A stretch of DNA of 64,000 nucleotides from Dehalococcoidia bacterium (GTDB taxonomy: Bacteria; Chloroflexota; Dehalococcoidia; Lucifugimonadales; CAZENU01), in the NCBI GenBank assembly GCA_965117035.1, contig OZ220748.1, positions 2,351,992-2,415,991 of the forward strand. Direction: 5' to 3'. How positions within the stretch are numbered: the first letter of the stretch is position 1; every line of letters begins with the position of its first letter. The position numbers were made by a program, and so were the translations under genes. Of the stretch, positions 1 through 1,295 are shown one piece after another. The notes below the pieces were generated by a model, which was not told the origin of the DNA, did no database searches, and saw only the letters and a program-made list of their open reading frames with translations.

Positions 1-56
1 TGCCGGGACGATGTGGGGATGATCTGTGTTTTGGAGGTTGGCGTCCTCGGGAGCCG

Positions 57-302
57 CTAGCCTGTTGCCGCGGCCTCCAGGGCTGCGTCGAGCTTCGCCG
101 GGCTGTAGCCCACGACCTTCTCGTCGCCGATCACGGTCACCGGCGTAGTCCGGTAGCCCATGCCGACGAGGCTCTTCAGCGAGTCGACGCTCTGCGATAT
201 GTTGTGCTCGGTGAAGGGCACGCCCTTTCGTGAAAGATACACTTTCACCATATGGCACGGCCCTCAGCCGTTCGACGTGTATACCAGTATTTCGCTGCTC
301 AC
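57..302 (-). CDS. glutaredoxin/NrdH-like thioredoxin-fold protein, candidate selenoprotein (active site U-G-P-C; in-frame TGA at 266..264)
   Basis: Reading the - strand through the TGA at 266..264 gives VSSEILVYTSNG[TGA]GPCHMVKVYLSRKGVPFTEHNI...TTPVTVIGDEKVVGYSPAKL. This is a glutaredoxin/NrdH layout with the TGA at the first Cys of the CxxC. The GTG start at 302..300 overlaps the upstream stop (GTGA), with GAGGA 9 nt upstream. The ORF track shows only the 64 aa after the TGA. Confidence 0.6.
230..248 (-). promoter_or_regulatory. candidate SECIS-like hairpin downstream of TGA 266..264
   Basis: The mRNA reads GUGAAAG-UGUAU-CUUUCAC: a perfect 7-bp stem and a 5-nt loop with G at loop position 2. 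The loop begins 22 nt after the UGA, inside the spacing range described for bacterial SECIS elements. Confidence 0.4.
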
Positions 303-766
303 TCCGACTCGTCCTCCGGCGTCTTCTTCGACTTCGGCCGCTTCGTCGACGCCTTCCTTCTCTCTCTATTGTACTCCCGTTTGCCGCCGGTGTTGTCGAA
401 CAGCTCCTCGCCGACCTGCACCGCCTCGCCTATCGTCTGCTCGACCGCTCCCTCTTCCTCTTCGTACTTGCGAAGAAACTCTTCGCTCACGAAGAACAGT
501 CATATGCAGAACCCGTCCCTCTGGATGTCCTCGTGATGCCGTTCGCACGGGCATATTTTCTTGCGGTCCTCCACGGGATCGCCGCTGAGAGGCATTCAGG
601 GGCAGTACCGGTACCCGTGGACGCGCTCGTTTTCTCCCAGGCCTTCCTGGACGATTCGGACGACCTCGGCGTCCGGGAAGAACTCGTACGGCCCACGGTC
701 GACGTAGCGCTCCGAGAACGCCTTCGCCCTGTCGAACGCCTCCGACTCGCTCAGCTCTCTCGGCAT
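299..766 (-). CDS. ferredoxin:thioredoxin reductase catalytic-subunit-like Fe-S protein, candidate selenoprotein (in-frame TGA at 598..596 and 502..500)
   Basis: One frame is interrupted only by two TGAs: MPRELSESEAFDRAKAFSERYVDRGPYEFFPDAEVVRIVQEGLGENERVHGYRYCP[TGA]MPLSGDPVEDRKKICPCERHHEDIQRDGFCI[TGA]LFFVSEEFLRKYEEEEG...ESE. The layout CP[U]-X14-CPC-X12-CI[U]-LF parallels the FTR catalytic chain CPC-X16-CPC-X8-CHC-LF. ATG at 766 follows a GAGGAA motif. The ORF track reports only the last 63 aa. Confidence 0.65.
471..496 (-). promoter_or_regulatory. candidate SECIS-like hairpin(s) downstream of TGA 502..500
   Basis: There are two mutually exclusive hairpins: UUCUUCG-UGAG-CGAAGAG (496..479) and CGAAGA-GUU-UCUUCG (485..471). 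The second places a G-first apical loop 20 nt after the UGA. Confidence 0.35.
568..592 (-). promoter_or_regulatory. weak candidate SECIS-like structure downstream of TGA 598..596
   Basis: The lower stem CCUCU (592..588) pairs with GGAGG (572..568, one G.U). The upper stem CGG/CCG carries the loop CGAUC (581..577). It is short and interrupted, so support is low. Confidence 0.2.
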
Positions 767-1126
767 CTATTCCTCTTCACTCTTCCCAGCCGGCGCCGCC
801 GGCCCCATTCGCATCCTCGCGTGCATCTCGCACGGCATCCGGTGGAACGACTTCGCCTGCAGCATCAGCCGCCGCGCCAGCTCCGGCGCGGCCTTCCTCA
901 GATCGTCCATGCCCTTGTCCGGCGCCACCTCGACGCTCAGCAGGCCCGCCGTGCCGCAGTCGCACCGGACCGCGAAGAAGACCTTTTCGAAGCCCGGGTT
1001 CGCCGTCAGGTCCAGCTTGAACCCCGCCAGCGGTCTCAGGCCCGAGTCCTCGGGAAGAGCGTCGGAAATGACCGCGCGGATCTCGCTGACCGAGGGCCGC
1101 CGCCCGACGTCCGCTACGCTATCGAT
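767..1126 (-). CDS. hypothetical Cys-containing protein, open frame without a canonical start codon
   Basis: The coding-looking frame reads ...HIDSVADVGRRPSVSEIRAVISDALPEDSGLRPLAGFKLDLTANPGFEKVFFAVRCDCGTAGLLSVEVAPDKGMDDLRKAAPELARRLMLQAKSFHRMPCEMHARMRMG... It ends at TAG 769..767, directly abutting the ATG at 766. No ATG/GTG/TTG occurs before the internal GTG/ATG near 925-910. A GAGGTG motif lies 4 nt upstream of an in-frame ATC at 1126..1124. The 5' limit is uncertain. Confidence 0.35.
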   Translation of the reverse strand: MDSVADVGRRPSVSEIRAVISDALPEDSGLRPLAGFKLDLTANPGFEKVFFAVRCDCGTAGLLSVEVAPDKGMDDLRKAAPELARRLMLQAKSFHRMPCEMHARMRMGPAAPAGKSEEE

Positions 1127-1151
1127 ATGCCACCTCGCCGTGTCGAGGTCC

Positions 1152-1228
1152 TGGTGGGCGGTAAAGGATTTGAACCTATGACCTCTGCGATGTCAACGCA
1201 GCGCTCTAAACCACTGAGCTAACCGCCC
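1152..1228 (-). tRNA. tRNA-Val (anticodon GAC), CCA encoded
   Basis: Cloverleaf read by hand. Acceptor GGGCGGT/ACCGCCC, D stem GCUC/GAGC, anticodon stem CUGCG/CGCAG with loop UUGACAU, T loop UUCAAAU (one U.U in the T stem), discriminator A plus CCA. Confidence 0.9.
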
Positions 1229-1265
1229 TCCACTCCGCCTCGAGCCGCCGCATCGGCGGATCTGA

Positions 1266-1295
1266 AGTTTAGCAAGGCGACGAAGAGGCGGTCAA
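1266..1295 (-). promoter_or_regulatory. putative sigma70-type promoter upstream of tRNA-Val
   Basis: On the - strand: TTGACC (1295..1290), 18 nt, TAAACT (1271..1266). A CCGCCG-AUG-CGGCGG hairpin lies between it and the tRNA 5' end. Confidence 0.35.

Follow-up and report, generated by a model that had tools for sequence, protein, structure and literature searches.

A conserved selenocysteine redox cassette between two tRNA genes of a Dehalococcoidia bacterium, with a small Cys3-His protein as candidate third partner

A ferredoxin-thioredoxin reductase (FTR) selenoprotein was first predicted in the GOS (Global Ocean Sampling) metagenomes, and the read JCVI_READ_1093012271142 carries two selenocysteines (Sec) at exactly the positions of the two Sec in the protein described below (Zhang & Gladyshev 2008, PMC2398784); the FtrB selenoprotein family also appears in a 2022 table of prokaryotic selenoproteins (PMC9312934). 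Here we describe a locus in a 64,000-nucleotide stretch of the genome of a SAR202-type Dehalococcoidia bacterium (contig OZ220748.1; the whole stretch is hereafter the window) that consists of the known double-Sec FtrB, a Sec glutaredoxin-like protein (Grx) and a newly described small Cys3-His protein (open reading frame 1, ORF1), and that lies between two essential tRNA genes, tRNA-Val and tRNA-Asp. To our knowledge, the double-Sec FTR has been a bioinformatic curiosity since 2008, without biochemistry. A protein gene co-transcribed with tRNAs is known from the E. coli thrU-tyrU-glyT-thrT-tufB operon, and AUU-, AUA- or AUC-initiated genes under discrimination by initiation factor 3 (IF3) are known from E. 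coli infC and pcnB. On balance, we lean towards a joint reading in which the locus forms a selenoprotein redox operon that is conserved in Dehalococcoidia and lies within a transcription unit of tRNA genes, where the transcript, the AUC start, the electron route and the role of ORF1 as a partner are what we infer. The FtrB part was already known, because it was predicted in 2008 and is curated as NF041072; the obligate third gene, the AUH (AUC, AUA or AUU) starts and the tRNA embedding are the new parts, as far as the libraries and literature that we searched go. Beyond the 2008 prediction and the 2022 table, the accessible text of the literature on double-Sec FtrB, diselenide FTR operons and SAR202 selenoproteins held no third partner gene, non-canonical start or tRNA-operon context, and no use of AUC or AUA for the first gene of a selenoprotein operon was found in the literature searched.

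The genome is one contig of 3.79 Mb with 66.9% GC and a completeness of 96.9%. All sequence features of a preliminary description of this DNA are present on the minus strand at their coordinates (Table 1); at the GTGA overlap of FtrB and Grx, which it had also noted, the coordinates are corrected to 301..299 for the FtrB stop and 302..300 for the Grx GTG start. To place the cassette among its relatives, which are metagenome-assembled genomes of Dehalococcoidia / SAR202, we used 77 loci (18 from related genomes and 59 found through ORF1), of which 67 are distinct. Conservation of gene order, on which that description had made its proposal of one dedicated selenium-based module depend, was found throughout: ORF1, FtrB with two TGA codons and Grx with one TGA codon follow each other in this order and on one strand in 77 of 77 fetched loci, a recurrence that chance would not give. 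The proposal is further upheld by an identical phyletic profile, in which, among 61 related genomes, ORF1 was found in all of the 18 with a double-Sec FtrB scoring above the cut-off (18/18) and in none of the other 43, that is, in 0 of 5 with a Cys-type FTR homologue and 0 of 38 others. Adjacency is kept even in the divergent locus L099 (1-2336), where the gene of P0085, a remote homologue of ORF1, points away from an FtrB split at its two TGA codons and a UGPC Grx, and the linkage therefore survives rearrangement. In that locus P0085 is followed by a Bac_luciferase-family gene, and there is no tRNA on the 3.2-kb contig. We also noted that about one third of the loci would be expected to have ORF1 and ftrB in one frame, and that 28 of about 60 distinct loci do, with 0-30 codons and 1-5 stops between them (L031-L087).

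Table 1. Coordinates of the cassette and of its flanking elements in the window
Feature	Position	Strand	Support
First part of the ~100-nt Grx/tRNA-Asp spacer	1..56	-	no promoter-like site
Glutaredoxin/NrdH-like selenoprotein (Grx), 81 aa, U13-G-P-C16; GTG start, stop TAG 59..57	57..302	-	Pfam Glutaredoxin
SECIS-like hairpin GUGAAAG-UGUAU-CUUUCAC, 18 nt downstream of the Grx UGA	230..248	-	conserved pairing
FtrB family double-selenoprotein, 155 aa, C-P-U57, C72-P-C74, C87-I-U89; stop TGA 301..299	299..766	-	NF041072, FeThRed_B
SECIS-like hairpin GCGAAGA-GUUU-CUUCGC, 16 nt downstream of the second FtrB UGA	470..486	-	conserved pairing
Candidate SECIS hairpin, weaker, downstream of the first FtrB UGA (598..596)	563..582	-	5 consensus pairs
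ORF1, 119 aa, Cys3-His protein; proposed start AUC 1126..1124, stop TAG 769..767	767..1126	-	homologues, dN/dS, invariant residues
Spacer/leader, 25 nt, Shine-Dalgarno GAGGTG 1136..1131	1127..1151	-	sequence and genus conservation
tRNA-Val(GAC), CCA encoded	1152..1228	-	ARAGORN; Rfam RF00005, 70.5 bits
Sigma-70-type promoter-like TTGACC-N18-(TG)CTAAACT	1266..1295	-	consensus scan

FtrB, whose ATG at 766 abuts the ORF1 TAG as previously described, scores 216.9 bits against NCBIfam NF041072 (cut-off 160) over positions 2-121 of 121, with 207.5 bits in a six-frame search of the genome, and 75.7 bits against Pfam FeThRed_B. A profile of its family retrieves from the PDB the FTR catalytic chains 7bzk_A and 1dj7_A as well as the rubredoxin-fused 4tpu_A. 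The two in-frame TGA codons are codon 57 (598..596) and codon 89 (502..500), and both are present in 67 of 67 loci. In comparison with the Cys-type FTR of the relative L027 and with 7bzk_A, U57 and U89 align with the second Cys of CPC and the second Cys of CHC, which we take to be the redox-active disulfide pair of established FTR structures. C55, C72, C74 and C87 are invariant (alignment A5) and match the four ligand positions of a [4Fe-4S] cluster, which is thereby predicted for this protein. The motif corresponding to the classical CHC reads C-I-U in 67 of 67 loci, with Ile in place of His. This FtrB is the only FTR homologue in the genome, and a variable subunit (PF02941, FeThRed_A) was found neither in ORF1 at E<=1 nor anywhere in the 96.9%-complete genome.

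The TGA of Grx is its codon 13 (266..264), read as U-G-P-C, and the surrounding G-U-G-P-C is retained in 67 of 67 loci. There are thus three Sec codons in two coupled genes (two in FtrB, one in Grx), as had been counted before, and all three UGA do replace redox-active Cys, namely, in FTR, the Cys that closes CPC and the one that closes CHC, and, in Grx, the Cys that opens CxxC. Grx scores 47.6 bits against Pfam Glutaredoxin (PF00462, cut-off 22.9) and stays below the NCBIfam cut-offs for YruB (TIGR02196, 64.7 vs 88.55) and NrdH (TIGR02194, 56.8 vs 85.75) and below those of the UXX-star families NF041211 (40.5 vs 100) and NF041212 (40.4 vs 66), and is placed in no named subfamily. The genome encodes the Sec machinery, with SelA (446 bits), SelB (341 bits), SelD (383 bits) and a tRNA-Sec(UCA). 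The selD gene, at 2641379-2642302 (+) outside the window, has one in-frame TGA, and SelD is therefore itself a selenoprotein. The stems of the hairpins that resemble selenocysteine insertion sequences (SECIS) downstream of the UGA codons show single compensatory changes across sequences. After U89, a stem of 6-7 bp is formed, of which 6 pairs are possible in 60 of 60 distinct sequences, with one C-G to U-A change; 7 pairs form after the Grx UGA in 55-56 of 56 distinct sequences, and 5 consensus pairs after U57 in 57-59 of 59, with a less clear structure.

For ORF1, the reported frame, which is free of stops between the 3' end of the tRNA and TAG 769..767 and contains the RCDCG and MPCEMH cysteines, was found as such, and its interpretation as a coding gene is sustained by conserved homologues, a low ratio of nonsynonymous to synonymous substitution rates (dN/dS) and invariant Cys and His residues. 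A search of 5.8 billion proteins returned 31 homologues with 48-77% identity, and an ORF1 profile run against 1.84 billion cluster representatives gave 81 matches, nearly all of them stand-alone proteins of 50-170 aa, with no informative fusion among the matches. C55, C57, E66, C99 and H102 (numbered from the ATC) are among the invariant residues of the alignment, and the CxC...CxxH pattern is retained even in the most distant members. Within the genus, the part of the frame that precedes the first canonical start has a dN/dS of 0.07-0.24 and is therefore translated, and the frame is open in 67 of 67 distinct loci. Public gene callers give shortened ORF1 models in close relatives (e.g. the 79-aa P0010). 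Family searches and structure prediction on the product of 767-1126, which had been proposed as a check, gave a confident AlphaFold2 model and no library family. The model, built from the family alignment, has a predicted local distance difference test score (pLDDT) of 88, a predicted template modeling score (pTM) of 0.76 and a helix-three strands-two helices (alpha-beta3-alpha2) arrangement, in which the CxC is predicted at the turn or tip of a beta-hairpin and the CxxH at the N-terminus of the last helix. ORF1 matched nothing in Pfam and NCBIfam, including the HSP33, rubredoxin and ferredoxin families of Pfam at E<=1; its profile matched no PDB sequence, and a Foldseek search of the PDB with the model gave no significant match (best E 0.16, TM scores 0.24-0.34). 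A few chains of ribosome hibernation factors were among these non-significant Foldseek matches. We considered ORF1 as a degenerate FtrB paralogue, since MPCEMH resembles CPCERHH, and rejected this at an hhalign probability of 0.3%.

The preliminary description had found no ATG, GTG or TTG near the 5' end of ORF1; this is correct for the whole frame before GTG 928, and the in-frame ATC 1126..1124 sits 4 nt after the Shine-Dalgarno (SD) element GAGGTG (1136..1131). GAGGTGG(C/A)ATATC is common to four species of the genus, with variable codons on its flanks, and the 3' end of the 16S rRNA is canonical (...GGATCACCTCCTTTCT). Other families show AGGACGCC(A/C)-ATC-GAC-AGC, with the same first residues I-D-S, and further families have GGAGGCCGC-ATC or GAGG-N6-ATA ahead of ORF1. 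There is no ATG, GTG or TTG in the 36-75 codons before the ORF1 CxC in 17 of the 67 distinct loci, and in about 8 more of the 67 only an ATH codon has an SD site. As a control, the same loci have a canonical start at the aligned N-terminus for FtrB in 66 of 67 and for Grx in 67 of 67. An AUH codon properly spaced from an SD site and without canonical alternative is thus found across species. Because the SD-ATC pair is conserved in the genus, because ATC or ATA recur elsewhere and because the starts of FtrB and Grx in the same loci are canonical, we regard AUC 1126..1124 as the likely start of ORF1, on the strength of sequence comparison. The out-of-frame GTG 1133..1131 was rejected as a start, as it meets a TAG after 4 codons and is unconserved outside the genus. 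A SAR202-like clade whose loci have no tRNA (L056-L082) has, some 59 codons ahead of the ORF1 CxC, a conserved cAAGGA-N6-NTT-GGG-GTA-AAT; an alternative ORF1 start in this clade is a CTG located 20 codons past the NTT motif. Outside the window, infC of this genome (encoding IF3, ~1126470-1126590, -) has no ATG or GTG near its conserved N-terminus and has ATC/ATA after GGGGAG, a pattern that fits the usual AUH start of autoregulated infC genes.

The promoter-like site at 1295..1266, noted previously and preceded at its -10 by TG, is the sole minus-strand match in 2.7 kb (on both strands, 2 matches against 0.5 expected in shuffles). Across the 19 distinct loci that bear tRNA-Val, TTGACC-N14-17-TTGCTA[A/C]ACT (in shorter writing TTGACC-N17/18-TGCTAAACT) lies 12-47 nt upstream of the tRNA in all 19 and nowhere else in those loci. 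The tRNA-Val was recovered by ARAGORN and Rfam at 1228..1152, where it had been reported; it lies 20-58 nt before ORF1 in 18 of these 19 loci, the remaining one (L010) having an intervening gene, and tRNA-Val(GAC) and tRNA-Asp(GTC) are each the only gene for their anticodon in the genome (whole-genome ARAGORN). Consensus scans place a promoter-like site upstream of the tRNA and, in agreement with the earlier reading, no promoter or terminator between it and the genes; the 25-nt spacer between tRNA-Val and ORF1 has no terminator-like hairpin or U-run. Folding energies of this leader equal those of shuffles (z about 0), and a small CCUCG...CGAGG hairpin over the SD, which had been seen by eye, was discarded as unsupported on that basis. 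At the other end, tRNA-Asp(GTC) lies 44-120 nt beyond the window start (contig 2351872-2351948), about 100 nt after the Grx stop, and follows Grx in 30 distinct loci. The consensus scan found no promoter-like site before it in four species of the window's genus; in the window the Grx/tRNA-Asp spacer has no TA dinucleotide except in the stop codon, and a terminator-like hairpin lies about 110 nt after tRNA-Asp. Since the only promoter-like site is before tRNA-Val, none precedes tRNA-Asp in the genus, no terminator lies between and the spacers are short, a single transcript tRNA-Val-ORF1-ftrB-grx-tRNA-Asp is the most economical reading for this genome, as judged from scans of its DNA. It agrees with the co-transcription with tRNA-Val that had been suggested before and extends that idea to tRNA-Asp.

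About half of the loci (the SAR202-like clade) have no tRNA within 2.5 kb of the cassette, and a promoter search of loci without tRNA gave a site scoring at least 10/12 upstream of ORF1 in 2 of 47. Two loci (L038, L040) have a tRNA-Glu(CTC) in place of tRNA-Val, 20 nt upstream of an ATG-initiated ORF1 and with no tRNA-Asp downstream, so that the cassette has come to lie behind more than one kind of tRNA. In other families within the same taxonomic order (L027 500-2000; L030 1200-2700), the slot between tRNA-Val(GAC) and tRNA-Asp(GTC) holds a Cys-type FTR (CPC...CAC...CHC) and a WCGPC thioredoxin, together with a Grx in L027, and no ORF1 homologue was found in these two slots; a Cys-type FTR and a thioredoxin in the same place elsewhere indicate that the slot is old. 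In the window, rpoC and the tRNA-Val promoter are separated by a 369-aa gene (1373-2482, -), whose product matches DUF6884 over its first 136 residues (165 bits) and nothing in Pfam at E<=0.001 over the remainder. As rpoC is directly upstream of tRNA-Val in the relative L027, the 369-aa gene looks like an insertion beside the tRNA.

From these elements we propose the following mechanism. The primary transcript would begin at the tRNA-Val promoter, take in the cassette and reach tRNA-Asp, and trimming of the tRNA 3' end together with RNase P cleavage would define both mRNA ends. ORF1 would be translated from the conserved AUC, a weak and IF3-discriminated start, which may throttle ftrB and grx within a strongly transcribed tRNA unit, because the TAG-ATG and GTGA junctions couple their translation to that of ORF1. 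In the protein products, ferredoxin would deliver electrons to the predicted [4Fe-4S] cluster of FtrB (C55, C72, C74, C87), from which two electrons would pass through the Sec57-Sec89 diselenide to the Sec13-Cys16 selenenylsulfide of the Grx-like protein, and Sec13-Cys16 would then reduce target disulfides. ORF1 may be a small metal-binding partner of the Sec-type FtrB, a role suggested by the absence of PF02941 from the genome, by the single FTR homologue and by the PDB precedent of an FTR-like protein fused to rubredoxin (4tpu_A). It would fill, by analogy and not by homology, the place of the variable subunit in cyanobacteria and plants or of the fused rubredoxin in archaeal ferredoxin:disulfide reductase.

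Several observations weigh against parts of this reading. In model bacteria, initiation at AUC is very weak. In the tRNA-free SAR202-like clade, the codon near the SD at the homologous site reads ATT in 9 loci, CTT in 3, GTT in 1 and AAT in 1, the latter three not being credible starts, besides TTG in 1 and ATG in 1. A strong TTGACC-N18-TAnAAT stands before tRNA-Asp in 21 of 30 relatives, and read-through to tRNA-Asp is therefore no general requirement. The role of ORF1 draws no support from any homology, and a model of a read-through ORF1-FtrB fusion (with the TAG taken as Gly; alignment A4, 28 naturally in-frame paired rows) was poor, with a pLDDT of 65.6, a pTM of 0.64 and values of 40-73 in the FtrB part, and has no bearing on the interface. 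On the side of expression, two alternatives can be set against an AUC-initiated ORF1 read from the tRNA-Val promoter. ORF1 might not be translated as proposed, so that only a 53-aa product from GTG 928 would arise or the region would be non-coding or a decaying gene; the lack of an ATG, GTG or TTG before GTG 928 and the shortened public gene models of close relatives (such as P0010) would fit this. Yet the invariant CxC and a conserved N-terminal helix are encoded upstream of GTG 928, the low dN/dS given above applies to precisely that stretch, the open frame is kept in all 67 loci and the SD with its ATC is conserved in four species and in other families, and we give this alternative almost no credence. 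Alternatively, the mRNA of the cassette might not come from the tRNA-Val promoter, either because the tRNA transcript ends before ORF1 or because an internal promoter is formed by TTGACA in the anticodon loop and TCAAAT in the T-loop, 17 nt apart. The tRNA-Val does contain TTGACA-N17-TCAAAT (1176-1204, -), and the tRNA-free half of the loci indicates that a tRNA promoter is dispensable for expression of the cassette; but TCAAAT lacks the key A at position 2 of a -10 element, the scan did not report it, and such a pattern probably comes with any tRNA-Val(GAC) that has these loops. The 25-nt spacer, free of any terminator-like hairpin or U-run, also speaks against this reading, as does the tRNA-Asp of this genus, which has no promoter-like site of its own, and we consider this explanation improbable.

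Less easily set aside is the function of ORF1, which might be, instead of a reductase subunit, a client or regulator (e.g. a zinc-thiolate redox switch reduced by FtrB/Grx), a small carrier that passes electrons to FtrB from an Fe(Cys)3His site, or a chaperone for assembly or for the handling of selenium. The CxC...CxxH of ORF1 is reminiscent of the CxC...CxxC centre of Hsp33, the Cys3-His set is invariant, and strict co-inheritance would fit any tight functional link, beyond a stable complex. The divergent orientation of ORF1 and ftrB-grx in L099 implies that equimolar co-translation is not required, and a weak start codon suggests that ORF1 is less abundant than FtrB. Such roles are opposed by the lack of any Pfam match at E<=1 to the HSP33, rubredoxin or ferredoxin families and of any sequence or fold match in the PDB, and by the ORF1 stop abutting the ftrB start in the window's genus, an arrangement typical of subunits; we take a non-subunit role to be possible, if on the unlikely side. 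Returning to ORF1 as a partner within a tRNA-embedded operon, a bolder version would have it found a new protein family and serve, as an obligate third member, a ferredoxin:redoxin reductase system of Dehalococcoidia/SAR202 that is based on a diselenide; an essential transcript from tRNA-Val to tRNA-Asp would contain the conserved AUC/AUA/AUU start that determines the expression of ORF1 and, by coupling, of the two selenoproteins. Taken whole, this version seems rather doubtful to us; if it were true, selenoprotein redox capacity would track the transcription of the tRNA operon and the status of IF3.

The analysis names the genes to co-express in order to reconstitute, for the first time, a natural diselenide/iron-sulfur reductase. 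Testable hypotheses on selenoprotein control in the abundant Chloroflexota of marine and subsurface habitats follow from the apparent AUC/AUA initiation and from the place between two single-copy tRNAs. A systematic error of annotation has also come to light, in which gene callers shorten or overlook ORF1 and both selenoproteins are split at UGA.

Compared with the NF041072 family (Zhang & Gladyshev 2008), the FtrB of the window is a member in which both redox-active Cys are replaced by Sec, and the gene itself shows no difference. With classical cyanobacterial and chloroplast FTR (1dj7, 7bzk) it shares the fold family of the catalytic chain, the CPC...CPC...CxC layout, a small second protein encoded alongside and a thioredoxin-fold protein as the likely substrate. 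It differs from them in that a diselenide takes the place of the disulfide, the His of CHC is Ile and the partner redoxin is a Grx/NrdH-like UGPC selenoprotein instead of a thioredoxin, and also in that ORF1 is unrelated to the variable chain, with no PF02941 match and a predicted alpha+beta fold in place of a beta-barrel. The archaeal FTR-like ferredoxin:disulfide reductase with fused rubredoxin (4tpu_A) resembles this system in combining an FTR catalytic-type domain with a small Cys-rich module, metal binding by ORF1 being putative, whereas the Cys3-His module is here a separate protein with neither sequence nor fold similarity to rubredoxin. With the E. coli thrU...tufB operon the locus has in common a promoter upstream of a tRNA and an mRNA that follows directly without a promoter of its own; here the mRNA would be flanked by tRNAs on both sides, co-transcription being the probable reading of the arrangement. 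Finally, ORF1 resembles the AUH-initiated genes infC and pcnB in having an SD-proximal AUH codon conserved across species, and differs from them in being the first gene of a selenoprotein operon, with an AUH start that is predicted from its conservation.

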